58,428 bases of DNA from Patescibacteria group bacterium (GCA_018813625.1 JAHJBA010000055.1:1-58428), one strand, 5' to 3'; counted from the first letter of the stretch, positions 9,266 to 58,394 are shown. Program-made: numbers and translations. Notes: generated from the letters alone by a model not told the origin.

Positions 9266-10471
9266 ATGCCCAAAGTAAATTCAGAAATAGAGAGTTTTGC
9301 CCGCATCAAGGTCATCGGAGTCGGTGGATCCGGTAAGAATGCGCTTAACCATATGATAAGTTCCAAAGTTAAAGGAGTCGAATTTATTTGTATGAATACG
9401 GATACTCAAGATTTGCATAGCTCTCTTGCTGAAAAAAAGATTCATATAGGAAAAACCTTAACAAAAGGCCTAGGTGCTGGGATGGACCCAGAAGTCGGAA
9501 AAAAGGCGGCTGAAGAAACAAAATCAGAAATCCAAGATGCAATCAAGGGAAGCGATATGGTTTTTATTACCTGCGGAATGGGAGGAGGAACAGGCACAGG
9601 AGCAGCTCCAACAGTTGCGAGATCGGCCAAAGAACAAGGTATACTTACTGTTGCCGTGGTGACAAAACCATTCTTCTTCGAAGGAAATCAAAGAATGAAA
9701 ATTGCTGAAAAAGGAATAGAAGATTTGGCAAAAGAAGTTGATGCAATTATAGTAATCCCTAATGACAAACTCCTGCAAATTGCAGACAAAAACACTAATT
9801 TCAAGAATGCTTTTGCAACCTGTGATGATGTTTTACGACAAGCAGTTGAGGGAATTTCAGATCTTATTACAATTCCTGGAATCATAAATGTAGACTTTGC
9901 AGACATAAGGGCAATAATGTCTGACGCGGGATCTGCCCTTATGGGAATAGGTTCAGCTTCGGGAGAAAGGCGTGCAGAGAAGGCTGCTCTTCAAGCAATT
10001 AATTCTCCCCTGCTTGAAGTTTCAATAAATGGTGCAAAAGGAGTTCTTTTCGCTATTTCTGGAGGAGATGATATTACAATTCATGAAATACAAGAAGCGG
10101 CAAAAATAATTACAGAATCAATCGATAAAGACGCAAAGGTTATTTTTGGCACAATCCATAACGATAAATTAAAGAAAGGAGAATTAAAGGTCACGGTCAT
10201 TGCTACAAATTTTCCAACTGATTTGCCGAGAAAGACTCTCTTTAATAACACCTTCAACTCTTCATCAAGCCATGCAACTTCGAAAGAAGAAGCCTTGCCA
10301 TCCGCAAAGAAAGAAATTCACAATAATCTCCAAGGATTAAGCGCAAGTAATAGCGAATTTAGCAAAAAAATTGAAAAAAAACCCGAAATAATAGAAGATA
10401 TAATTATTGATGATGATATAGATAATTGGAGCGCTGTGCCAGCTTTTTTGAGAAGAGATAAAAAGAAATAA
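9266..10471 (+). CDS. ftsZ: Cell division GTPase FtsZ
   Basis: 401 aa with tubulin signature [10 protein letters not shown] and a C-terminal peptide [17 protein letters not shown]. Confidence 0.95.
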
Positions 10472-10475
10472 AAAT

Positions 10476-11402
10476 ATGCTATACGATCTGATTATCGTCG
10501 GAGGAGGCCCTGCGGGCTCAGCCGCCGCCATATATGCTTCAAGAAAACGCCTTAATACGCTTTTGATAGCTTCAGAGTTTGGAGGACAATCTGTCGTTTC
10601 AGAAAAAATTTATAATTGGATAGGAACAATAGCCATAGCGGGACAAGAACTAGCAAATAATCTTAAAAATCACGTCATGGCAAACGCAGGCGATGTCTTG
10701 CATACAAAAGAAGGCACAAGAGTTGATTCTGTTTTAAAAAAAGGAGACTCTTTTAGAGTAAAAACCAGCTCCGGTGAGGAATTTGAGGGAAAAACAATTT
10801 TAATAGCAACGGGAAGTAAGCGCAGAAAACTAGAAGCGGAAAATGCTGAACGTCTCGAGCACAAAGGACTTACTTATTGCGCCACTTGTGACGGACCCTT
10901 GTTTGCCGGATCAGACGTCGTGGTTATAGGTGGAGGAAATGCTGCGTTTGAAAGCGCTTCCCAACTCTCCGCTTATTGCAATTCTGTGACAATTTTAAAT
11001 AGAAGTAATGAGTTCAGGGCAGATGAAATAACTGTCGAAAAAGTTTTGAAGAATCCCAGAATAAAGGTGATAAAAAATGCAGTAGTCTCGAAGGTAAAAG
11101 GAGAAAAATTTGTAGAAGGACTTACCTATAAAGAGGTAAATACGGGAGAAGAAAAAGATCTACAGATTACTGGAATTTTTATAGAGATTGGGCAAATTCC
11201 AAATACTGATTTTGTAAAAGATATTGTTCCACTAGATAATGTCGGCAGAATCAAGATAGACCCATGGACTGGAAAAACAGAAACTCCGGGCGTCTGGGCC
11301 GCCGGCGATTGCACTAATGTCCTGTATCACCAAAACAACATCGCCGCTGGCGATGCTGTTAAAGCCCTTGAAGATATTTACCTAAATCTTCACACAAAAT
11401 AA
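10476..11402 (+). CDS. trxB: Thioredoxin reductase
   Basis: 308 aa with FAD motif GGGPAGSAAA, redox CATCDG and NADPH motif GGGNAA. Confidence 0.85.
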   Translation: MLYDLIIVGGGPAGSAAAIYASRKRLNTLLIASEFGGQSVVSEKIYNWIGTIAIAGQELANNLKNHVMANAGDVLHTKEGTRVDSVLKKGDSFRVKTSSGEEFEGKTILIATGSKRRKLEAENAERLEHKGLTYCATCDGPLFAGSDVVVIGGGNAAFESASQLSAYCNSVTILNRSNEFRADEITVEKVLKNPRIKVIKNAVVSKVKGEKFVEGLTYKEVNTGEEKDLQITGIFIEIGQIPNTDFVKDIVPLDNVGRIKIDPWTGKTETPGVWAAGDCTNVLYHQNNIAAGDAVKALEDIYLNLHTK

Positions 11403-11409
11403 ATAATTG

Positions 11410-11640
11410 CGGAGGCGGTGACCTGCCTGCCGGCAGGCAGGGATTCAAACTTACGATTGGGTTTCCCCAATGCCGGTTTTTGAATTCTGAAAAAAAGCGG
11501 AGGGTACAGGACTTGAACCTGTAAGGGCTTTCGCCCGCTGGTTTTCGAAACCAGTGCATTACCATTCTGCCAACCCTCCGCTTTTTTTCAGAACATTCAA
11601 CTTCATCCCGCCACGGCGGGGCAAGCTCAGCCACGCCTCC
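11410..11640 (-). other. GC-rich tRNA-like shell enclosing tRNA-Ser (possible disrupted class-II tRNA or unknown structured RNA)
   Basis: On the minus strand it starts GGAGGCG-TG-GCTGAGC and ends CGCCTCC-G-CA, a 7-nt perfect acceptor-like complement. It contains AAAACCGG-C-ATTGGG-GAAA-CCCAAT (Ser-like variable arm) and AAGTTTGAATCCCTG (T-loop-like). It does not fold as a complete tRNA. Confidence 0.3.
11498..11579 (-). tRNA. tRNA-Ser (anticodon CGA)
   Basis: 82 nt folded by hand: acceptor GGAGGGT/ACCCTCC, anticodon arm CTGGT-TTCGAAA-ACCAG, long variable arm CGGGCGAAAGCCCTT, T arm ACAGG-TTCAAGT-CCTGT, discriminator G. CCA is not encoded. Confidence 0.9.
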
Positions 11641-11703
11641 TCGCACTTTTTAATCTATCATTTTTTGCGATTTTTTCAAAAATAATATAATATATACCTC
11701 ATT

Positions 11704-11756
11704 GGCCCTATCGTCTAACCAACTGGACTATAGCGGACATCGACTTTTCGAAAGTC
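11704..11756 (+). pseudogene. 5' fragment of tRNA-Glu (no T arm, no 3' acceptor strand)
   Basis: GGCCCTATCGTCTAAC (16/16) and GGACATCG match the 5' half of the intact tRNA-Glu 95 nt downstream. They are separated by a 15-nt insertion in the D-loop. The fragment ends in a GACTTT-TCG-AAAGTC hairpin. Confidence 0.6.
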
Positions 11757-11798
11757 AAAGTTATTAAAAAATTTTGTTTTAATTTTGAAATCATATAT

Positions 11799-11870
11799 GG
11801 CCCTATCGTCTAACGGTTAGGACATCGGCTTTTCAAGCCGGTAATCCGGGTTCGATTCCCGGTAGGGTCA
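11799..11870 (+). tRNA. tRNA-Glu (anticodon TTC)
   Basis: 72 nt: acceptor GGCCCTA/TAGGGTC (one G-U pair), anticodon loop TTTTCAA, T arm CCGGG-TTCGATT-CCCGG, discriminator A. Confidence 0.9.
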
Positions 11871-11894
11871 CCTAAAGAGAGATTTGCTCAAAAT

Positions 11895-11921
11895 TAAAAA
11901 ACCCCAGAAGGGGCTTTTTTT
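11895..11921. terminator. Short GC hairpin terminator flanked by A- and T-runs
   Basis: aaaaaa-cccc-agaa-gggg-c-ttttttt, between tRNA-Glu (+) and the 68-aa minus-strand ORF. Confidence 0.5.
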
Positions 11922-11926
11922 AATTT

Positions 11927-12133
11927 TTATTTCCTTATTTTTTCTGCAAGATTAAACAGACACATGGTCTGTATCAACAGGATAGCACCCACTATTGCTA
12001 GCGGAACAGCTATCCATGTACAAACAGAAGAAACAAGCGGAGCGGGAATGAGAAGGAAAGAACCTAAAAGACCGCGACAAACAGCCCTCTTTTCCAACCT
12101 CTCCACCATTGGAGAAAACTTACTTTCTGTCAT
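11927..12133 (-). CDS. Hypothetical small membrane protein (2 predicted TM)
   Basis: 68-aa ORF with two hydrophobic stretches. A terminator lies just downstream. No recognisable family. Confidence 0.4.
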   Translation of the reverse strand: MTESKFSPMVERLEKRAVCRGLLGSFLLIPAPLVSSVCTWIAVPLAIVGAILLIQTMCLFNLAEKIRK

Positions 12134-12219
12134 AATATAGTTTTTTAAAAATTTTCAATAGAACAAACTTAAAATCAAAATACCATAAAATGGATATAAA
12201 GTAAAGAGGGATCTTTTTA

Positions 12220-12248
12220 TTGAAAACATCTCCCCTGTTCTGTATAAT
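12220..12248 (+). promoter_or_regulatory. Near-consensus sigma70-type promoter (TTGAAA-N17-TATAAT)
   Basis: ttgaaa at 12220-12225 and tataat at 12243-12248 with a 17-nt spacer. The -10 box ends only 8 nt before the ATG at 12257, implying a leaderless or near-leaderless mRNA. Confidence 0.6.
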
Positions 12249-12256
12249 CTCAAAAT

Positions 12257-13003
12257 ATGAGTAAAAATAGAAAAATAAAAATTGTGATTTTAGCCGCCGG
12301 CAAGGGAACAAGAATGGAAAGCGACCTACCAAAAGTTTTGGCGCCCCTTAAGGGAAAAAATATGATCAGACATGTGATTGAATCAGTGCAGAAAGCTTCT
12401 AATGAGAAACCTATAGCTATAATCGGACACAAAGCAGAGCTCGTACAATCTGACCTAGGAGATTTGTGCTTCTATGTATTGCAAAAAGAACAGCTTGGGA
12501 CAGGACACGCCGTTTCCTGCGCAAAGGGAGATTGTGAAGGAGCAGAAGACATCGTGGTATTATCCGGTGACCAGCCTTTTATAAAAGCTGAAACAATAAA
12601 AAATCTAATAGAAAAACATTTAGAAACTGGGGCAAAGATAACTTTAGCTACGACAATACCATTAGATTTTTCAGACTGGAAAAAAGCTTTTTTGGTTTAC
12701 GGCAGAATTTTAAGAGAAAACGGAAAAATTATAGGTATTCGCGAATTCAAAAATGCCACAGACAAAGAAAAAGAAATCAAAGAAGTTAATACTGGTTGTT
12801 ATATGTTTAATGCGGACTGGCTTTGGAAAAATTTAGATAAAATAGAAAACAAAAATGCGCAAGGAGAATATTATTTAACGGATCTTTTTCATATTGCATT
12901 TGAAAATGGCGACAAGATAGAGAGTATAGAAATAGAACCTCATGAAGCATTAGGAGCAAATACAAAAGAAGACCTTGAAGTTCTTGAGAACTTTGCTGTA
13001 TAA
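12257..13003 (+). CDS. Sugar-1-phosphate nucleotidyltransferase, GlmU N-terminal (uridyltransferase) domain only
   Basis: 248 aa with ILAAGKGTRMESDLPKVLAPL matching the GlmU pyrophosphorylase signature. There is no C-terminal hexapeptide-repeat acetyltransferase domain. Confidence 0.75.
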   Translation: MSKNRKIKIVILAAGKGTRMESDLPKVLAPLKGKNMIRHVIESVQKASNEKPIAIIGHKAELVQSDLGDLCFYVLQKEQLGTGHAVSCAKGDCEGAEDIVVLSGDQPFIKAETIKNLIEKHLETGAKITLATTIPLDFSDWKKAFLVYGRILRENGKIIGIREFKNATDKEKEIKEVNTGCYMFNADWLWKNLDKIENKNAQGEYYLTDLFHIAFENGDKIESIEIEPHEALGANTKEDLEVLENFAV

Positions 13004-49632: not shown

Positions 49633-50199
49633 AAATTTCTTTCGATAAATAAAATAAACTTCAACTAAGTTTGCCAACACTAAATATATTGGGAATGAAT
49701 ATATCGCGAAAATCCAATTTCTGACGATTAATAAAGATAATGTATTCCCTATAATTCCTCCAATATAAATTGAGCTATTCTCGGTTTCTGGGTACTTCCA
49801 AGTTTTAATAAAAGTTGGAATATAAGCCAAAAAGTCGCTCAAAATGGCAAAAAGTATGGAAATTCCCAAGTTATTTGTAATTATATAAAGAACAAGAGCC
49901 ATTATGGAAATAAAACCGCAAACCAAATCAAAAGACTGTATTTTCCAAAAAGCATTTTTCTTAAATATTGAAAAAACTATTACCAAAAACGGACCAACAC
50001 CTGCCATTAATACGCTTAGTGAAGAAAGTCCTGCTCCTGCTTTTAATTGCAAAAATACCCCGACAAACGGCGCAAGCATCCAAACAAACCAAGAAATTAA
50101 ATTAGGCCTAGTGCCATGCCGAAAAATCCCGCGAATATACCAAATCGTACAAATAAGATTTATCAAAACTCCTATAAAAATGATATTTTCAGGTAACAT
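49621..50199 (-). CDS. Hypothetical 6-TM membrane protein
   Basis: 192-aa hydrophobic ORF. Convergent 12-nt overlap with speB. Confidence 0.5.
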   Translation of the reverse strand: MLPENIIFIGVLINLICTIWYIRGIFRHGTRPNLISWFVWMLAPFVGVFLQLKAGAGLSSLSVLMAGVGPFLVIVFSIFKKNAFWKIQSFDLVCGFISIMALVLYIITNNLGISILFAILSDFLAYIPTFIKTWKYPETENSSIYIGGIIGNTLSLLIVRNWIFAIYSFPIYLVLANLVEVYFIYRKKFLRS

Positions 50200-50275
50200 C
50201 CCAGTACTAAAATTTTAAATTGTTAATAATGGTGATCATTTATTTCGTACAAAAATTTAGTACGGGACAAGTATT

Positions 50276-51973
50276 TTAATAAACCTCCTGCTGATAACAC
50301 TTTTCGCAATAAACTATTTCTGGCCTGTCTGGAGCATAAGCTGTTTTAATTTCTCTTTTACATTTAGCACATTCTCGATTATATGACTTAGGAGGTAAAA
50401 CTAAATCAAATCTATCTTTACGTCGACATTCAGGACATTTTCTTGGTATTCTCAAATTTAGTTTTTTAAGAATATTCAATTCTCCTTCTATTATTTTATA
50501 ACAACGGCCACATTCACATCTTATAATTTCATTTAAAACATTTTTAAAATCACTTAATTTATCAGGTAATTCTAAATATTCAATAGTATGCACATATTTA
50601 TTTGGTGTAGATTCAAACCATAGATAACCACTGTCTAATGCTTCCTCTTTGTTCTTTATAAAATATTGATTAGCGATAGTTTCATTATAACCAAATGATG
50701 AAAATTCAACTGGAAAAAATTCCCCATATCTATAAACCCTTCCTTTTTTGTCTATATAAGGATTTTCATTCATATTCTTAATGATTTTTTCTCTTAATTT
50801 TTCATAATCATCTTTTAAATATTCTTTATTTAAAATGCAATATTTTTTTCTTTTTAAGTTTGAACAACCAAAAATATACTTGCAGGAGGAAGAGTAATAA
50901 CTATACTCGTTATTATAAGAATCCGGATAAGATCCTATGCAAAATTTTATATCTGACGCTTCGTGCCCTGAAATCAAAGTTTCATAAGCCAAAGAACAAT
51001 TACCTCCCCAACAAGTATAATCATAACAATCCCTTGTGAAAGGAACTGACAGGAATTGCACAAAACGAGAATTCTCAGCACTTGTTCCCAAATAAACATC
51101 ATGAGAATTTTTTGATTCATAAACATAATTACCGGAAACATTTACATTTAAACTATTTCCGTAATATTCCCTATTTGGTTTGGTAATCCAAAAATCTTCT
51201 GACATTTTTTTATATTTAGAAAACTCAGAATAAGAAAATAAATCTATGTTTTTTATAAAATCAAAATATTCCTCTTTTGAACATTGTTTATTAAAAACAC
51301 AATATTGTTTATTCTTTAAATTCATAGAGCCAAAACAATTGTTGCAACCCGAACAATTTTTACAAAAAAATAAATCAAAAGAATTTTCACACTCAAGACA
51401 GGAAATACAATTAAAACATTTATAAATTCCAGTACATTCATAACAAAGCTCCGATTCTCGTGCCCTATGACAATCTGAAGAATCCTTTAAGGTATGCAAA
51501 AAATCTGAATAAAAAGAATTCTCACAAAAATCTGCATAAAATAAAGCGTAGCAATTTTTTAGATAAGAAGAATAATTAGTATAATTTGTGTTAATAAGGG
51601 AAGAATACAAAGTATCAACAGACATATGAGGAGTTTTATTTTTTAATTCCAAAAGTTGTTCTAAGAAATTACGATTTTGATCATAATCCATCCCATACTC
51701 AGTTCCATCCCAATCATCCGCCCACCAACACTTGGAACAAAAAACAATTTGTTTTTTGTCTTTATGAAACATAGAAATAATGTTTTCATTACACTTATTA
51801 CATTTACTTTTATACAAAGAATAAACATTCATAAACGCTAACCTCCTTTGAAATCTACAATCGGGACAAAAGGTAGGCGGAGGAACTTTTATTTTTTCGT
51901 AAAAATTAAAATCTTCAGATTCTATAGTGAAGTCTTTTTTACAATTCTGGCATTGTTTTGTTTCGTTTTGCAT
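50276..51973 (-). CDS. Cys-rich zinc-ribbon-bracketed protein, paralog A
   Basis: Start set at MQNETKQCQNC, 2 nt after the paralog B stop; the track ORF starts at 52000. 565 aa, and I count 39 Cys. Four CxxC pairs at the N-terminus and four Cys pairs (CxC/CxxC) at the C-terminus. Ends CEKCYQQEVY. Confidence 0.75.
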   Translation of the reverse strand: MQNETKQCQNCKKDFTIESEDFNFYEKIKVPPPTFCPDCRFQRRLAFMNVYSLYKSKCNKCNENIISMFHKDKKQIVFCSKCWWADDWDGTEYGMDYDQNRNFLEQLLELKNKTPHMSVDTLYSSLINTNYTNYSSYLKNCYALFYADFCENSFYSDFLHTLKDSSDCHRARESELCYECTGIYKCFNCISCLECENSFDLFFCKNCSGCNNCFGSMNLKNKQYCVFNKQCSKEEYFDFIKNIDLFSYSEFSKYKKMSEDFWITKPNREYYGNSLNVNVSGNYVYESKNSHDVYLGTSAENSRFVQFLSVPFTRDCYDYTCWGGNCSLAYETLISGHEASDIKFCIGSYPDSYNNEYSYYSSSCKYIFGCSNLKRKKYCILNKEYLKDDYEKLREKIIKNMNENPYIDKKGRVYRYGEFFPVEFSSFGYNETIANQYFIKNKEEALDSGYLWFESTPNKYVHTIEYLELPDKLSDFKNVLNEIIRCECGRCYKIIEGELNILKKLNLRIPRKCPECRRKDRFDLVLPPKSYNRECAKCKREIKTAYAPDRPEIVYCEKCYQQEVY

Positions 51974-51975
51974 AA

Positions 51976-53703
51976 TTAATATACTTCCTGTTGATAACAT
52001 TTCTCACAAAAAACTATTTCAGGTCTGTCCGGAGCATAAGAAGTCTCGAATTCTACTTCACAGTGTTTATCCCCATGGAAATGGCTGATTTTGTCACACA
52101 TGCATTGTCTATGCCAGAGTTTCATTGGATTTTTTAATTTCATTCTTTCTTTATTTCTTTCATCTGGATGAAATCTTGGAATTGGAATATTCATCCTTTT
52201 ATAAAATTCTAATTCAAATTTTGTTAATTTAAATGCCCTACCTGATTTTTCACATTCTATAACTTCATCTAATATAGAATCATCAATGTCTTTAATATTG
52301 TCAGAAATATCTTTCGCTTTTAATGTAATAACATATTTATTATCAACTTTTTCTTTATATGGATATCCCTTTTCTATTATTTCCTCTTTTGTTAACGGAA
52401 AATGATCATTTGTTACTGATTCATTGTAACCATGAGGACAAAATTCATACGGAAAAAATTCACCATATTTATATATCCTACCTCTTTTATCTGTATACGG
52501 CATTTCGTCCATATGTTTTTTAATTTTTTCTACCATCTCAAAATACTCTTCTTTTTCATATTGTTTATTTAAAATACAATACTTTCTATTTTTTAATGCA
52601 ATACAACCAAATAGATAACTGGAAGATCTACAAACATCTGTATATTCAACATTATTTAGAGCGGGTGCTCCGTTTACTACAAATTTAACATTTGACCCAT
52701 TTTCTGAACCACCAGAAGAATGCTCATAAGCTAATTCTGCCCATGAATGACAAACATCCATAGAATCTTTTGCATGAGTAATCCTATACCCATATTTAAT
52801 ATTATGGTTATCATGTCCCTTAAAAGAATAAGAAAGATTTTTAGAATCTAAAAGTTCATCCCCATTTGAATTAACACAATTTATTATTCGTCCATATTTT
52901 CTTGGAAATCCCAATGAAAAATTCCAAAATTTAGTAAAGGTTTTTTGGGTAAATTTATAACTTCCAATATTAAAATCTTTTATTTTCTTTAAATATTCTT
53001 CCCTGGAAAATTGTTTGTTCCAGATGCAATAATTTTTATTTCTAAGATTCACACAACCAAAACAATTCTGACAATTTATACAATCTAAAATAAAATTAGA
53101 ATCTATACAACTTGAGGACCAATAAGAATACTGACAATTATAATTTTTTGTACTGCCAATATTTTGGTACAGTAATTGACTATTTATTATATTATATGAA
53201 TCAACTATTTCTTTAGAATTATCAATATTACTTGAAAAGTATACGCTCTCCGAGCCTAGAAGAGTAGAATATGAAAGATACACATCTTTAACATCTTTAA
53301 CATAATTACAATATTCAGAATTTAAATTTTTACCTATTTTCCAAAGTGATTGACGTGGTATTGTGTTAAATAATTCTTGCCATTGTTTAAAAAAATTTTT
53401 AGAAAAATCATATTTTTGATTGTACTTACCTGGATCCCAAGCGTCACTCCACCAACACTCTGGACAATACACAGGAAAAGGAACTCCGTCATCGTACATA
53501 GAAATAATATTTTTCTTGCACATATCACAACTTCTCTTATATAAAGATCTTTCGTTTCTCCAAATCATTCGACGAACAAAACGACAATGTGGACAAAAAG
53601 TCGGCGGAGGAACTTTTATCTTTTCATAAAAGTTAAAATCTTCAGATTCTATAGTGAAGTCTTTTTTACAATTCTGGCAATTTTTAACTTCACTATTATG
53701 CAT
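51976..53703 (-). CDS. Cys-rich zinc-ribbon-bracketed protein, paralog B
   Basis: 575 aa. N-terminal residues CQNCKKDFTIESEDFNFYEKIKVPPPTFCP are identical to A. The third ribbon is degenerate (CEKSGRAF / FHPDER). Ends CEKCYQQEVY. Confidence 0.75.
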   Translation of the reverse strand: MHNSEVKNCQNCKKDFTIESEDFNFYEKIKVPPPTFCPHCRFVRRMIWRNERSLYKRSCDMCKKNIISMYDDGVPFPVYCPECWWSDAWDPGKYNQKYDFSKNFFKQWQELFNTIPRQSLWKIGKNLNSEYCNYVKDVKDVYLSYSTLLGSESVYFSSNIDNSKEIVDSYNIINSQLLYQNIGSTKNYNCQYSYWSSSCIDSNFILDCINCQNCFGCVNLRNKNYCIWNKQFSREEYLKKIKDFNIGSYKFTQKTFTKFWNFSLGFPRKYGRIINCVNSNGDELLDSKNLSYSFKGHDNHNIKYGYRITHAKDSMDVCHSWAELAYEHSSGGSENGSNVKFVVNGAPALNNVEYTDVCRSSSYLFGCIALKNRKYCILNKQYEKEEYFEMVEKIKKHMDEMPYTDKRGRIYKYGEFFPYEFCPHGYNESVTNDHFPLTKEEIIEKGYPYKEKVDNKYVITLKAKDISDNIKDIDDSILDEVIECEKSGRAFKLTKFELEFYKRMNIPIPRFHPDERNKERMKLKNPMKLWHRQCMCDKISHFHGDKHCEVEFETSYAPDRPEIVFCEKCYQQEVY

Positions 53704-53705
53704 AA

Positions 53706-54791
53706 TTAAATCCCCTCTTTTTTGAGCTGTTCGACAAGATCTTGTGCCTTTCGAGAAAGCTTATTAGGAAGCTTAATATTTAATTTAATTAGAAGATCAC
53801 CGCGCTTAGTTTTAGAAACAGGCACCCCTTTTCCCTTCACACGCAGAATTTCATTTATTTTTACGCCTTCAGGAATCTTAACTTTTATCTCGCCGTCTAG
53901 TGTTTCAATAGGATATTCAGCACCCAAAAGAGCGTCAGATAATTTTAAATTCAAATTCATTACTAGGTCATGACCTTCTCTTTTAAATGTCGGATGTGGT
54001 GTAACATTTATTTTTATATACAAATCTCCGGAAGTCCCTTTTGAAATTGCCTCCCCCATTCCGGACAGGCGAATCATCTCACCATCGCGAATACCTGCGG
54101 GAATATTAATAGAAATCTCTTCTTCACGTCGTAACACCCCAGCACCCTTACATTTATCGCATTTTTCAGTCGGAACCTGCCCAGAACCTAAGCATTCTTC
54201 ACAGATTCTTGTGCTTTGAATAGAACCAAGAAATGATCTTTTAATTTCACGTATTTTTCCTTGACCATTGCAATATTTACAAGTATTCATCTTTGTCCCC
54301 GCTTTCGCCCCAGATCCGTTACAAGTAGTACAATTCGAAGTTTTTGTAATTAAAATTTTTCTATTAACACCGAAAACAGCTTCAGAAAAAGAAATTTGTA
54401 TTTCGGTAGAAATATCTCTGCCACGACGAACCTTTGCTCTACCTCCTCCGCCTCCTGTAAAGAAATCAGAAAAAATATCATTTAAATTTCCAAAATCAAA
54501 TTCTGTTCCCCCATTTTGAAATCCAGAAAAATCGAAACCTCCAAAACCGCCTTGCTGATATCCACCAGCTCCACCCATATTTTCGAAACCAGGACCAAAT
54601 TGATCATATTTCGAACGCCTAGCGTCATCAGAAAGTATTTGATAAGCCTCGTTCACTTCCTTGAATTTCTTTTCATCTCCACCTTTCTTGTCTGGATGAT
54701 ATTTATGCGCCATCTTATAAAAAGCCTTCTTTATTTCGTCCTTCGACGCACTTTTATTTACACCTAATATTTCATAATAGTCTTTACTCAT
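53706..54791 (-). CDS. dnaJ: Chaperone DnaJ (type I)
   Basis: 361 aa with a J domain (YHPDKK), G/F-rich linker, four CxxCxGxG motifs ([32 protein letters not shown]) and a C-terminal domain. Confidence 0.92.
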
Positions 54792-54807
54792 AGTATTTAT
54801 TTTAGAA

Positions 54808-56364
54808 TTATATCATAGGTTCAACCTCTTGGGAAGTCTTTTTGCTTACTTGTTTTTTCCCGGCACCCTGACTATCGTCAGAGATCGGGAAACCAACCTC
54901 TTCAGACGTCGGGGCTTCATCGTCTTCTTTTACTTCCTGTTTGTTTTTTAATTTTCTTTTAGCTTTTCCTTCGATTATTGCTTTTTCTTCTGCGCTTCTT
55001 ATAATTGAGGCCTCCTCCTCGGCAATAAGATTTGCAGCGGCATCTTTAGCAATGGTATATTTTCTGTGAGATGCCTCGTAAATTTCTTTTTTATATGAAT
55101 GATGAGTCGGAGGCAAAACTCGCAAAGTTTCCGCTGAAAATGGATCATAAGATTCACCATCAATTGTCATTTTTACGTAAATTTCACCAACTGCAAGGTT
55201 AATCATATCTTTGACATCAAAAACTGGAGAAAACTCCGGCTTCATTTTAACGGCATCTTCTCCTCCAACACGGAAAGTAATAATACTACCGCAATTACCA
55301 AGCACCGCCTGGTGAACTCGAGTAATAACTTGACCGACATATTGGTGCGCAATAGTAAGGTTCAGGGCATATTTTCTAGCTTCCGATAAAATATTTTCAA
55401 AAGTTTGGGTGACAACATTTTGAAACTCATCTACGTATAAATAAAAATCCTTACGCTCACTTTCCGGTATGGCTGCGCGTTCCATTCCGGCTTGTTTTAT
55501 TTTTGTTAGAAAAATTGAACCAAGAAAACTGGAATTTTCTTCTCCCAAACGGCCCTTGGAAAGATTGATGAGAATAATTTTTCCTTCATTCATCAATTTA
55601 CTAATATCTATTTTATTTTCTTTCTGTCCAAAAATATTTCTAAGCAACGGATCTGAGAGAAATTGTCCCAATTTATTTACCAAAGGAATAATGGCATCCG
55701 TATCAAATTTTTCTGACCAGTCAGCAAATTCTATAGCGAAGAATCTTTTGACCATATCATCGGTAATGTATTCAACAACTTTTTGTCTGTAATTTCTGTC
55801 CGTAAGCATTGAAATCATCCCGCGCATCGTGGCATGCGGATAATCAAGCAGAGCCAGACAAGTAAAACGAAAAACGTGCTCCAGTCGAGGCGTCCAGTTT
55901 GCTCCAAATTGTTTTTGGAAAACTTCAATTAATCCTTGAGTAAGCTGAAATTTAAACATCGGATCAACATTTGCAAGTGGATTAAATGATGCTGGAAAAT
56001 CAACATCAGAAGGATCAATAATACAAACATCTTCTATTCGTTCTTTTGGTATATAATCAAGAATCGCATCCATTGTCTCTCCGTGCGGATCAATAAGACA
56101 TAAGCCATGGTTATATGTTACATCCTGCCTGATTAAAAGTTCTAATAGCTTAGACTTTCCGACGCCGGATTTTCCAAGAATATAAAGATGCCTTCTGCGA
56201 TCTACTCTTTTGATTCCAAAAATAAATTTTTTTTCTTCCAAGGCTGCAACATAGTTTGTTCGTCCAATAAAAGAAACCTCCGCTGGGTCGAATCTTCCAA
56301 AAACCGGTAATTCCGGTGGAGGTGGAGCATATTTTATCAGTTGAACTCGATTTGGCTTTGCCAT
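54808..56364 (-). CDS. Soluble TraD/VirD4 (T4CP)-like P-loop NTPase
   Basis: 518 aa with Walker [10 protein letters not shown], Walker [11 protein letters not shown] and [16 protein letters not shown], a coupling-protein-like motif. No TM segment. K/E-rich low-complexity tail. Confidence 0.55.
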
Positions 56365-56407
56365 ATACTTGCTTATTTTACTATGATTTTAGGTTATTTT
56401 CAAATCT

Positions 56408-58114
56408 TTAATATACTTCTTTTTTATAACAATCTTTGCAAAAAATTTTAGGTGCTTCATCTTCTGTATAATGAGTTTTAAAATAAATACCACATTTATC
56501 ACACACTCTATCTATTTCTTTCATCTGAGAAACCCACGTTTTTACTTTTTCTTCTATTCTACAAAATGGACATTGTCTAGAAAGTGGCACATTTAATTTT
56601 TTTACCAAATCTATTTCTTGACTTACTATTTTATATCCTCGTGGACAAGTACTACATTGGATAACTTCTTTTAATATTTCATTGGAAGTATCTTTTATGT
56701 TATCAGGTAAATCCGTGTAATTTATAGTTATCGGATATTTTTCAAAAAAATGATCATGCCATCTTAATTTATAATCTTCAACTTCATTTTTTGTTTTTGA
56801 AAATAAAAAATTGGCATAAGAATTATTATAAGCATGTGGAGAAAATTCCATTGGAAAAAATTCTCCATATCTATATACATTTCCTTTTTTATCTACATAT
56901 GGCATATCTTCCATGTGCTTTATTATTTTCTCACGTAATTTAAAATACTCTTCCTTGCTATATTGCTTATTTAAAATACAATACTTTTTATTTCTAATAG
57001 AGATACATCCAAAATAATCAGATCCTCCGACAACTGACTTACAATATTCTGCATCATTCAATCCCCAACCAGATTCATGACTAAATTTTACATTAAAAGG
57101 GCTTTCTCCAACAGTCACACATTCGTAAATCAATTCAGCATTCATGCCCCAATCAACATAATCATAACTATCCTTCGTTGAACCATCTCTAATAAGCATA
57201 AGATATTTTGAATCTTCACAAGATGTAACATCAAAACATTGTTTGCAATTTTTAGATCTAAAAACATAACTACCTGAAACATTATTACTTTGAGTTTCCC
57301 ATACTGGCTGAGGTAATGTATTTTTAAAATATTCCTGTGCTTTTTCTTTCCAATATATATATTCTTTATAGGAGCCTAAATCAATATTATTTATTTTCTT
57401 TTTGTATTCTTCCTCAGAAAATTTTTCACCCATAAATACATATGAACCATTTTTTATATTTGCTACTCCAAAGCAATGGTGTGCACCTTCACAATCTCTA
57501 ATAAAAGCACTATCATAACAAAATCTGTTATTACTTATTGATCCATATATATTGTATGATTTAAAAAGATTTGAACAATCAAAACATTTTTCTGAATCCA
57601 TAACAACAGAACATATATATAAATCCTTATTTCTAGTCAACCAAAAATCAGAAACACAATCTTCGTTGTAATCTGAAAAATAAACCATATAACAATTCCT
57701 TGAATGAGCTACATGATTTACATATGGTGAAGTTTTAATGGTTGCAGAATCTACGTGAAGAGCTAAAACAGGGGTTTTACATAAGAGTTCTTTCCATTGT
57801 TCTAAGAATGGTTTATTAAAATCAATCTCTATACCAAAACTTAATGGATCCCAATTGTCACTCCACCAACATTTTACACAGTAAACAGTAAAAGGAGCAT
57901 TAGGTTCATACATTGAAAGTCCTTCTTCCCCACACAAATCACATTTCCTTTTAAACAAAGTAAAACTTGGCATCCAAGCAAGCCTTCTTTGCAATCGACA
58001 ATTTGGACAAAAAGTCGGAAGAGGAACTTTGATTTTTTCGTAAAAGTTAAAATCCTCAGGTTCTATAACAAAATCATGTTTACAGTTCTGACATTGTTTT
58101 GTTTCATTTTCCAT
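56408..58114 (-). CDS. Cys-rich zinc-ribbon-bracketed protein, paralog C
   Basis: 568 aa. N-terminus CQNCKHDFVIEPEDFNFYEKIKVPLPTFCPNCR. C-terminal ribbons CSTC/CPFC and CDKC/CKDC. Ends CKDCYKKEVY. Confidence 0.75.
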   Translation of the reverse strand: MENETKQCQNCKHDFVIEPEDFNFYEKIKVPLPTFCPNCRLQRRLAWMPSFTLFKRKCDLCGEEGLSMYEPNAPFTVYCVKCWWSDNWDPLSFGIEIDFNKPFLEQWKELLCKTPVLALHVDSATIKTSPYVNHVAHSRNCYMVYFSDYNEDCVSDFWLTRNKDLYICSVVMDSEKCFDCSNLFKSYNIYGSISNNRFCYDSAFIRDCEGAHHCFGVANIKNGSYVFMGEKFSEEEYKKKINNIDLGSYKEYIYWKEKAQEYFKNTLPQPVWETQSNNVSGSYVFRSKNCKQCFDVTSCEDSKYLMLIRDGSTKDSYDYVDWGMNAELIYECVTVGESPFNVKFSHESGWGLNDAEYCKSVVGGSDYFGCISIRNKKYCILNKQYSKEEYFKLREKIIKHMEDMPYVDKKGNVYRYGEFFPMEFSPHAYNNSYANFLFSKTKNEVEDYKLRWHDHFFEKYPITINYTDLPDNIKDTSNEILKEVIQCSTCPRGYKIVSQEIDLVKKLNVPLSRQCPFCRIEEKVKTWVSQMKEIDRVCDKCGIYFKTHYTEDEAPKIFCKDCYKKEVY

Positions 58115-58137
58115 ATTATTTCTATTCTATAATTCTA
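58112..58137 (-). promoter_or_regulatory. Repeated upstream element, copy 1 (in front of paralog C, overlapping the arsR 3' end)
   Basis: Minus strand reads TAGAATTATAGAATAGAAATAAT-ATG, 24/26 identical to copy 2. TAGAAT lies 9 nt from the ATG. ATTCTA-N8-TAGAAT inverted repeat at 58132-58151. Confidence 0.45.
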
Positions 58138-58394
58138 ACGAATTGTAGAATACTTTTACCACGATTGGTAAGTTTATGTCGTACAATATTACCCTCACTT
58201 CTCTTCATGAGAAGTCCTGATATAGCCATTTTATTCATATGAGCAGATATATTTTTAAACTCTGATTTTAATTTGTCAGATACCTCCTGCACAGACAATT
58301 CTGGCTCTTTGCCTAATAATTCAAGTATTTGTAATCTTCTATGATTAGCAAAACCTTTGACTATCCTTTCCAATTCCCTGTTTGATTTTTTCAT
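58122..58394 (-). CDS. ArsR/SmtB-family winged-helix transcriptional regulator
   Basis: 90 aa with FANHRRLQILELL...LSVQEVSDKL...NISAHMNKMAISGLL, a typical ArsR HTH. No metal-binding Cys is apparent. Confidence 0.75.
   Translation of the reverse strand: MKKSNRELERIVKGFANHRRLQILELLGKEPELSVQEVSDKLKSEFKNISAHMNKMAISGLLMKRSEGNIVRHKLTNRGKSILQFVRIIE

Follow-up and report, generated by a model that had tools for sequence, protein, structure and literature searches.

Between positions 50,276 and 58,114 of a contig from a Patescibacteria group bacterium (GCA_018813625.1, JAHJBA010000055.1:1-58428), three paralogous genes, here called A, B and C, encode Cys-rich proteins on which no Pfam or NCBIfam model reaches its cut-off. 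The locus raises the question of how these proteins are built and what they act with. The window analysed was the whole stretch of 58,428 nucleotides (nt), and family members from other genomes were compared with it. As argued below from sequences and predicted structures, the most likely role would be that of a zinc-stapled binding scaffold that works with a neighbouring ATPase. An initial annotation of the same DNA had proposed zinc-ribbon pairs at both ends of each protein and a duplicated core; all 19 strings that it quoted were located at consistent positions in A, B and C. The three proteins share 43-44% pairwise identity, and 4.9-6.8% of their residues are Cys. Their genes lie as follows (aa, amino acids):

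50276-52000, minus strand: paralog A, an open reading frame (ORF) of 574 aa with 39 Cys, the richest Cys ladder
51976-53703, minus strand: paralog B, 575 aa with 28 Cys; its third Cys4 site, Zn3, is degenerate (C484, S487, H512, E515)
56408-58114, minus strand: paralog C, 568 aa with 32 Cys; the reference for residue numbering

Domain architecture of the paralogs

Paralog C was divided into five parts, each placed by the evidence given in brackets or marked by its properties:

57815-58114, minus strand: residues 1-100, N-terminal module with candidate zinc sites Zn1 and Zn2 (CxxC positions and DSSP assignment of the model)
57380-57730, minus strand: residues 129-245, putative solenoid 1 with cap and helix (12-mer register, model and structural match)
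56915-57289, minus strand: residues 276-400, putative solenoid 2 with cap and helix (hhalign to solenoid 1, and register)
56669-56914, minus strand: residues 401-482, middle segment, conserved and acidic
56411-56668, minus strand: residues 483-568, basic C-terminal module with candidate zinc sites Zn3 and Zn4 (hhalign to the N-terminal module)

Comparison of these parts with one another revealed two duplications within each chain. Profile-profile comparison by hhalign used a 101-sequence family alignment, for which 98 of 150 listed representatives had been picked for near-full length. It matched the C-terminal module to the N-terminal module (probability 99.8%, E 8.4e-30, 81 columns), bearing out the proposal that the C-terminus repeats the logic of the N-terminus, and it matched the two halves of the core (99.9%, E 1.6e-35, 131 columns), as expected of the internal duplication that had been suggested. 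Within each paralog, the two terminal modules (about 90 residues each) gave BLASTP E-values of 7e-11 to 3e-15 and Smith-Waterman z-scores of 13-17, and the two halves gave E-values of 9e-08 to 2e-11 and z-scores of 8-11. In none of the six comparisons did any of 500 composition-preserving shuffles match the real score. Self-BLAST of A, B and C as whole proteins returned the identity match only, and the duplications emerged after the chains were split into modules. Because the profile-profile E-values were obtained on the 101-sequence alignment, both duplications are real and belong to the family as a whole, beyond these three genes. A separate alignment omitted near-duplicates (loci L037 and L039), sequences with internal stops (L051, L052, L054 and L063) and also L070-L079.

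Four CxxC pairs stand at each terminus, as the initial annotation had described: they start at residues 17, 45, 67 and 88 in the N-terminal module of A and, in the C-terminal module of C, appear as CSTC 487, CPFC 515, CDKC 538 and CKDC 559. In C they make up Zn1 (C8, C11, C36, C39), Zn2 (C58, C61, C79, C82), Zn3 (C487, C490, C515, C518) and Zn4 (C538, C541, C559, C562). We examined these sites in 258 near-full-length sequences, a set of 50%-identity representatives plus closer relatives of C whose percentages are no unbiased census. Zn1 was intact, with Cys or His at all four positions, in 237 sequences, Zn2 in 195, Zn3 in 222 and Zn4 in 250; all four sites were whole in 172. Zn2 and Zn3 were missing in 24% and 14% of the set, and Zn3 loss of the kind seen in paralog B, where the absent ligands had been recognised from the strings CEKSGRAF at 484 and FHPDER at 511, was found in 36 sequences. 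At Zn2, 61 sequences kept no more than one ligand and 2 kept two or three. Because ligands are lost all-or-none, the terminal quartets appear to behave as real tetrahedral metal sites, and the four Cys4 sites would bind structural zinc. The first CxxC lies 3-10 residues from the chain start in most members, and the last CxxC starts 10 residues from the chain end in 239 of 256 full-length members. Cys/His-rich insertions in the Zn3 knuckle and/or before the Zn4 knuckle occur in paralog B and at L004, L012-L015 and L029, and could form extra metal sites; the short insertion of paralog B, before Zn4, reads CMCD...HFHGD.HC.

The four CxxC pairs per terminus had been read as two 4-Cys ribbons. The Cys4 quartets held, but the predicted geometry is that of a treble clef and not of a zinc ribbon. 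In AlphaFold2 models of the full length and of residues 384-568, DSSP placed the pairs C8/C11, C58/C61, C487/C490 and C538/C541 on knuckles between paired strands and the pairs C36/C39, C79/C82, C515/C518 and C559/C562 at helix starts. The treble clef is preferred because the models start a helix at each second CxxC; at none of the four predicted sites do both CxxC lie on beta-hairpin knuckles, as in the classical zinc ribbon. When 80 family members were searched with Pfam (E <= 0.01), zf_Tbcl_2 matched 33 and zf_Tbcl 24, the best E-values for zf_Tbcl and zf_Tbcl_2 being 8.5e-08 and 1.7e-06, and four other Pfam families were each matched by one or two members. The Pfam treble-clef finger model scored 18.5 bits on paralog A (residues 540-572; cut-off 27), and neither zf_Tbcl nor zf_Tbcl_2 matched B or C.

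The full-length AlphaFold2 model of C had a mean predicted local distance difference test (pLDDT) score of 86.7 and a predicted template modelling (pTM) score of 0.90. It was confident outside the coils, which scored pLDDT 64-79 and contained short DSSP strands six residues apart. Solenoid 1 (residues 129-225) comprises eight 12-residue rows of the form C-[YF]-x-[CS]-x-x-h-x-x-[SCN]-[KE]-[ND]; the period-3 power of Cys plus Ser in the family alignment was 0.83 over solenoid 1 compared with 0.007 over the middle segment, used as a control. Solenoid 2 follows the same repeat logic in rows of 12-14 residues. Each repeat domain ends in a cap motif followed by a helix, CFG..N..N..Y....FS.EEY after solenoid 1 and FGC....K.YCILNKQYSKEEY after solenoid 2, and the two half-ending signature strings quoted by the initial annotation were found in each of A, B and C. 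Sequence conservation peaks in cap 2 (entropy 1.46 bits) and is lowest in the coils (2.4-2.6 bits) and in the linker between the halves (2.95 bits).

Two beta-solenoid-like repeat domains, as originally proposed, agree with the 12-residue repeat and with the model, but the structural matches were weak. A search independent of Foldseek listed 50 neighbours that are beta-helix or beta-roll proteins by title, at Z 2.7-5.7. The best was the Lolium ice-binding protein 3ult_B (Z 5.7; root-mean-square deviation (rmsd) 2.5 A over 97 residues, matched to model residues 128-224), and others were Ag43, LpxD/GlmU-type helices (about 4.5), YadA/UspA1 heads and 1m8n (Z 4.4). Z values below 6 lie in the range that the search tool calls common, so the call of a solenoid fold rests on the periodicity and the model and not on the matches. 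Foldseek found no match to the full-length model in the PDB at E <= 0.001.

The Cys/Ser ladder of the coils would face inward. The runs of CxxCxxCxxC reported for A (CFNCISCLEC at 195 and CKNCSGCNNC at 213) and B (CINCQNCFGC at 208) are present, and they are largely absent from C, as had been stated, the core of C having only two CxxC (177 and 290). Such runs could be read as cluster ligands or as thiol/disulfide ladders, making the family redox or Fe-S proteins. The overall Cys content would suit this, as would the run that ends solenoid 1 (positions 208, 211, 214 and 217), which is 71-95% Cys in the 101 sequences. However, paralog C has Ala and Val at two of these four positions, and in solenoid 1 the ladder positions as far as residue 211 were Cys in 2-80% of the 258 sequences (C214 in 96%), with Ser, Val and Leu as replacements. 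Co-presence of ladder Cys gave phi values of at most 0.52 (one CxxC) and of -0.03 on average at i+6, so that the ladder lacks the pair or quartet covariation of the all-or-none fingers. No Fe-S family was matched by the window proteins in Pfam or NCBIfam, or by the 80 members in Pfam, at the E limits used. An Fe-S or redox function is thus highly improbable in our estimate. Because the Cys vary, exchange with Ser, Val and Leu and show no pairwise covariation, the ladder would be the interior packing of a narrow solenoid, much as in insect antifreeze helices with coils of 12 residues, and not a metal or Fe-S site, and the earlier argument for a structural role was upheld.

The middle segment of C carries the motif MPY.DK.G..Y.YGEFFP ... 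YN.S/T ... W. The MPY.DK.G..Y hairpin had been described as common to all three paralogs, which is correct for the window, but of 27 family members aligned only 8 have it; the [YW]GEFFP core that follows is near-universal among these 27. In the full-length model, pLDDT was at least 93 throughout the segment except at residues 451-460 (82). When residues 384-568 were folded alone, residues of about 414-463 fell to 47-70. Because of this drop, the segment probably packs on solenoid 2; its folding appears to depend on the remainder of the chain, and it seems to be no autonomous domain. Foldseek found no match in the PDB for the 384-568 model at E <= 0.001, and a wider structural search returned six chains at Z >= 2, the best being human papillomavirus E6 (Z 2.4); by these searches neither the middle segment nor the C-terminal module seems to have a recognisable solved relative, which is no proof of a new fold. 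Median net charge was -4 for each solenoid, -6 for the middle segment and +5 for the C-terminal module. The family is judged soluble because a crude hydropathy threshold was reached by 4 of 256 full-length members, and no signal-like hydrophobic segment was detected in family members by the hydropathy scan.

A neighbouring VirD4-like ATPase

The following gene lies next to paralog C:

54808-56364, minus strand: P-loop ATPase of the TraD/VirD4/HerA-like kind, soluble, 518 aa; downstream of C after a gap of 43 nt

Its translation contains a GKSGVGKS P-loop and matched the Pfam families DUF87 (PF01935; 32.5 bits, cut-off 23.2) and T4SS-DNA_transf (PF02534; 21.1 bits, cut-off 20.1), with TrwB_AAD_bind and TraG-D_C just below their cut-offs. 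The clade to which it belongs scored far below cut-off with the NCBIfam TraD, VirD4-like and CedD models. In PADLOC, the window ATPase matched mad8 and HerA weakly, at E 2.5e-11 or worse. No transmembrane-like segment was detected in the window ATPase or in two clade orthologues with N-terminal extensions of about 300 aa. This extra region, itself soluble, is found in orthologues from other classes (751 aa in genome G082, 730 aa in G199) and not in the window ATPase; orthologues from the same class are short, about 480-520 aa.

We examined the distribution of the family and of the ATPase in a phylum sample of 201 genomes and a class sample of 151 genomes, both including the source genome. The family was present in 13 and 22 genomes, respectively. 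TraD/VirD4-like ATPases occurred in 199 of the 201 phylum-sample genomes, mostly with one to four matches each, and the 12 other family-positive genomes gave the 11 best matches to the window ATPase and the match at rank 14. A tree of 51 sequences placed the 13 ATPases from the 13 family-positive genomes in a single clade with a Shimodaira-Hasegawa-like approximate likelihood ratio test (SH-aLRT) support of 99. None of the 20 best ATPase matches from family-negative genomes fell inside this clade, and a second ATPase of the source genome (contig C27) grouped with a family-negative genome of the same class (SH-aLRT 100). The tree comprised the window ATPase, the 12 best matches of the other positive genomes, 18 paralogs from positive genomes and the best matches of 20 negative genomes (13 top-ranked and 7 of the same class); four rows had one internal stop read as X, and the best matches of 168 lower-scoring negative genomes and two same-order genomes were left out. 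In the class sample, an ATPase orthologue (E <= 1e-185) accompanied the family in 18 of 21 positive genomes and was found in 4 of the 129 genomes that lack the family, and two more ATPases were ambiguous at 50-51% identity. Among genomes with both, 8 of 13 in the phylum sample and 13 of 18 in the class sample (21 of 31) had the ATPase gene no more than 3 kb from a family member, usually on the same strand and on either side. Complex prediction for ATPase residues 1-430 and paralog C, both entered as alignments, gave a score of 0.00, which is evidence neither way.

Phyletic co-occurrence and conserved gene neighbourhood are the reasons for which we suggest that the family acts with this ATPase clade. 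With moderate confidence, and from sequence-derived evidence, we favour a twin-solenoid, zinc-stapled scaffold acting with a dedicated clade of soluble VirD4-like ATPases. The chain would begin with two Cys4 treble-clef zinc fingers, followed by a beta-solenoid of about eight coils with its cap motif and helix. A variable linker would lead to a second, homologous capped solenoid and a small acidic segment, and the chain would end in a second pair of zinc fingers, homologous to that at its start. The result would be a rigid scaffold stapled by zinc, in which the conserved ends and caps stay constant and the coil surfaces and linker diversify among paralogs. The family could serve as client, adaptor or regulator of the TraD/VirD4-like ATPase, which is of the hexameric type.

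Several observations weigh against this scaffold-and-partner explanation. On the structural side, the coils reach only pLDDT 64-79 with structural matches of Z below 6, and periodicity is the sole basis for the inward-facing ladder. On the genomic side, G339, from the same genus, has an ATPase 88% identical to that of the window and no family member, and the family-positive genomes G215, G236 and G291 have no ATPase orthologue at E <= 1e-135. The family gene and the ATPase are 221 kb apart in the single-contig genome G024. At 79 independent loci, any TraD-like ATPase within 3 kb was found at 13, of which 6 were of the clade type, and many family copies lie among housekeeping genes (pseudouridine synthase, L19, Map, Mur ligase). 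The genomes are also related, so that the two-by-two co-occurrence counts overstate independence. If the ATPase link were inherited gene order only, the proteins would still represent a new zinc-capped solenoid architecture, of modest reach.

The same co-occurrence and synteny with the TraD/VirD4-like ATPase clade could mean that the proteins are translocated type IV-like effectors or cargo, the basic C-terminal module being the signal read by the ATPase and the paralog arrays a diversifying epibiotic effector repertoire. In known type IV substrates, the C-terminal signals are positively charged; the C-terminal module has its median charge of +5 and, in 239 of 256 members, its fixed distance between the last CxxC and the chain end, and the multiple copies, tandem arrays and patchy distribution are of the kind expected from such a repertoire. 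However, the ATPase lacks the transmembrane-like segment of canonical coupling proteins, the unfolding of four zinc-stapled domains and two solenoids before export would be difficult, and many copies sit within housekeeping operons. VirB4 (PF03135) was not found in the source genome, which is 93.9% complete, although this model may miss VirB4 of the monoderm type. PMC12102498 reports that VirD4-type homologues are abundant in Patescibacteria, with 5,713 counted and only 148 near virB4. A further point against export is its statement that one cultured species did not require the t4cp homologue to grow epibiotically. We regard translocated effectors as unlikely.

A bolder version of the partnership, which we also rate as doubtful, would make the twin-solenoid proteins the long-missing clients of VirD4-like ATPases, 'orphan' enzymes present in nearly all Patescibacteria. 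A soluble coupling-type ATPase would then recognise the conserved basic C-terminal finger module of these proteins and deliver, unfold or load them. The paralog arrays would be a diversifying set of rod-shaped, mildly acidic solenoids that act on host cells or foreign DNA, either as effectors or as cargo or decoys resembling DNA. If true, this would be a new ATPase-plus-client system specific to ultra-small bacteria. The more general scaffold-and-partner explanation already offers, through the link to one clade, a testable handle on the role of the near-universal VirD4-like ATPases.

Family distribution and other neighbours

A phmmer search of 1.84 billion representatives (50% clustering) returned 3,324 proteins at E <= 0.001, of which 1,198 also passed E <= 1e-30; the usual length was 540-600 aa. 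A search of 90% clusters gave 7,434 matches scored among 8,000 candidates. Names among 120 matches listed were 'hypothetical protein' or 'Zn ribbon nucleic-acid-binding protein'. Titles of matching records included Candidatus Nomurabacteria, Paceibacterota, Staskawiczbacteria, Liptonbacteria, Parcubacteria and Minisyncoccia, together with the automatic label 'uncultured Candidatus Saccharibacteria' and one metagenome-assembled genome (MAG) labelled Flavobacteriales; in this analysis the family is found almost only in records labelled Patescibacteria. A full-text literature search returned no paper on the family or on zf_Tbcl/zf_Tbcl_2, the ESM Atlas returned the family's own unnamed clusters only, and no PADLOC family was matched by A, B or C.

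The source genome (549 kb, 60 contigs) contains six full-length copies and two fragments at contig ends. Patescibacteria genomes measure about 0.5-1 Mb. Six genes of about 1.7 kb amount to about 2% of this genome, spent on a family that has no Pfam or NCBIfam model and is among the larger unnamed ones measurable in this analysis; its architecture is defined well enough for family model building and construct design. Positive genomes carried 1 to 9 or more copies, which often stood in tandem, with seven copies in 16 kb in G082, and two or more family ORFs were found at 38 of 79 further loci. Within the same genus, one genome had one copy and another had none. Transfer between classes had been considered from the first genomes seen (0 of 9 from the same order or class) and was rejected with the class sample, whose 22 positives mark the initial absence as a sampling effect. 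Frames of about 400 aa in G340, G336 and G251 matched profile positions 2-395 only, that is, the N-terminal module and both solenoids, and look like natural truncations without the middle segment and C-terminal module. Other class-sample frames matched from about position 100 on, without the N-terminal module. A search for longer fused forms returned two proteins, of 1,727 and 1,114 aa, which from their lengths and scores were taken to be fused tandem copies and which, so taken, provide no domain-fusion clue.

Within the window, the first 25 nt of the A ORF lie inside the end of B, and this ORF contains a candidate Met start codon at 51973-51971. This tenth codon (Met10 at 51973) is probably the true start, because it lines up with the start codons of B and C and follows the B stop after 2 nt; with this spacing, B and A are probably translated as a tight tandem pair. 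GC content was 0.29-0.30 in the 2-kb windows over the paralogs (50001-54000 and 56001-58000) and 0.32-0.40 in the rest of the window, which amino-acid composition or a different history could explain. Two further genes flank the paralogs:

53706-54791, minus strand: DnaJ gene, between the ATPase gene and B, with its own CxxCxGxG zinc-finger repeats
58122-58394, minus strand: winged-helix regulator of the ArsR/SmtB-like type, 90 aa, next to C on its upstream side

The position of this regulator, together with the many Cys and many copies, could suggest a zinc or thiol buffer or storage protein for a cell of minimal metabolism. However, the regulator falls below its family cut-off (NCBIfam HTH_metalloreg, 47.4 bits compared with 55; Pfam HTH_5 and HTH_24 weak) and contains no Cys, and it is uncertain whether it belongs to the module. 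A buffer would also have no need of a conserved 570-aa architecture with non-Cys motifs such as the caps and YGEFFP, and the family's presence in just 13 of the 201 phylum-sample genomes fits such a role poorly. We give a storage function very little credence.

Analysis of the wider neighbourhoods used 79 loci chosen as closest relatives (L080-L158, MAG records). An RluA-type pseudouridine synthase gene lay upstream of one family orthologue group at 36 loci, the gene for ribosomal protein L19 lay downstream of the same group at 29, and Sua5/YrdC was nearby in 10. On contig C34 of the source genome, a paralog has an amino-acid-kinase-family gene on one side and a methionine-aminopeptidase-type (M24) gene on the other; housekeeping neighbours elsewhere included Mur ligase and YceG. 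These neighbours, the basic C-terminal module and two relatives that one source labelled automatically 'Zn ribbon nucleic-acid-binding protein' would fit nucleic-acid-binding factors that act through their four treble-clef fingers in translation or RNA metabolism, the ATPase neighbourhood being secondary. However, since the 79 loci are closest relatives, the RluA/L19 neighbourhood may be inherited gene order. The fingers at Zn2 and Zn3 are dispensable at the frequencies given above, both solenoids and the middle segment are acidic, and no solved nucleic-acid-binding domain rose above noise in profile and structure searches. A role of this kind seems improbable to us, and the scaffold working with the ATPase clade remains the explanation that we prefer.

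Other genes were observed beside family members. The paralog on contig C34 is the fourth of the source genome (L022, 6496-8202), and about 1.5 kb downstream of it lies a 935-aa TraD-like ATPase of a different clade (9724-12531). Genes of the TrmB type, with a winged helix-turn-helix, stand beside family arrays in G082 (L020, 9046-9858) and G031 (L021, 2636-3382 and 8613-9371), and a Fic/DOC-family gene lies within a five-copy array in G031 (L021, 14527-15174, minus strand). A 771-aa ORF lies between two family members in G020 (L029, 6792-9107, plus strand); it had no NCBIfam match and was not detected as an ATPase.

Comparison with known systems

A profile search of PDB sequences matched LIM fingers (E 9e-4) and the antifreeze protein (AFP) of Tenebrio molitor, 1ezg (E 1.8), only. 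The likeness to the latter lies in the 12-residue coil, and the family profile match (positions 155-219) is confined to that E-value. The Tenebrio protein has a 12-residue coil with a small or Cys residue at every third position. Compared with this type of helix, however, the family lacks the i+6 Cys covariation expected of paired disulfides, and its 12-mer register has no Thr-x-Thr column. Among small ice-binding solenoids, 3ult was the best structural neighbour and the spruce budworm AFP 1m8n reached Z 4.4; in contrast with antifreeze solenoids, the family has no signal-peptide-like or membrane segment, and its repeat domain is duplicated, capped by motifs and framed by zinc fingers. No significant sequence similarity was obtained, and the resemblance is by this evidence one of construction and not of membership. 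The left-handed beta-helices of hexapeptide acyltransferases and gamma-carbonic anhydrases are also distinct: the family has period 3, matched them at Z 4.0-4.7 and has no Hexapep match, this model not being among the Pfam matches of the window proteins (E <= 1) or of the 80 members (E <= 0.01). Unlike ferredoxin-type Fe-S proteins, the family has ladder Cys that form no conserved, co-varying set and are partly missing in C.

The terminal fingers share with zf_Tbcl (PF13451), zf_Tbcl_2 (PF23477) and the CxxC-x17-CxxC family TIGR04272 two CxxC pairs about 17-25 residues apart. The zf_Tbcl families carry the label 'probable treble clef zinc finger' and no description of a function; here four such fingers frame a repeat core of 400 residues. 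The last finger (profile 512-549) matches the second finger of the avian CRP LIM domain 1ctl (E 9e-4), and the same finger superposes locally on the p300 PHD finger over 39 columns (rmsd 1.9 A, E 0.45). These matches are local and weak, and the family lacks an interleaved two-zinc arrangement. The window ATPase shares its P-loop nucleoside triphosphatase domain with the VirD4, TraD and TrwB coupling proteins; unlike these, it has no N-terminal membrane anchor, and its clade follows the distribution of the Cys-rich family and not that of a secretion locus.

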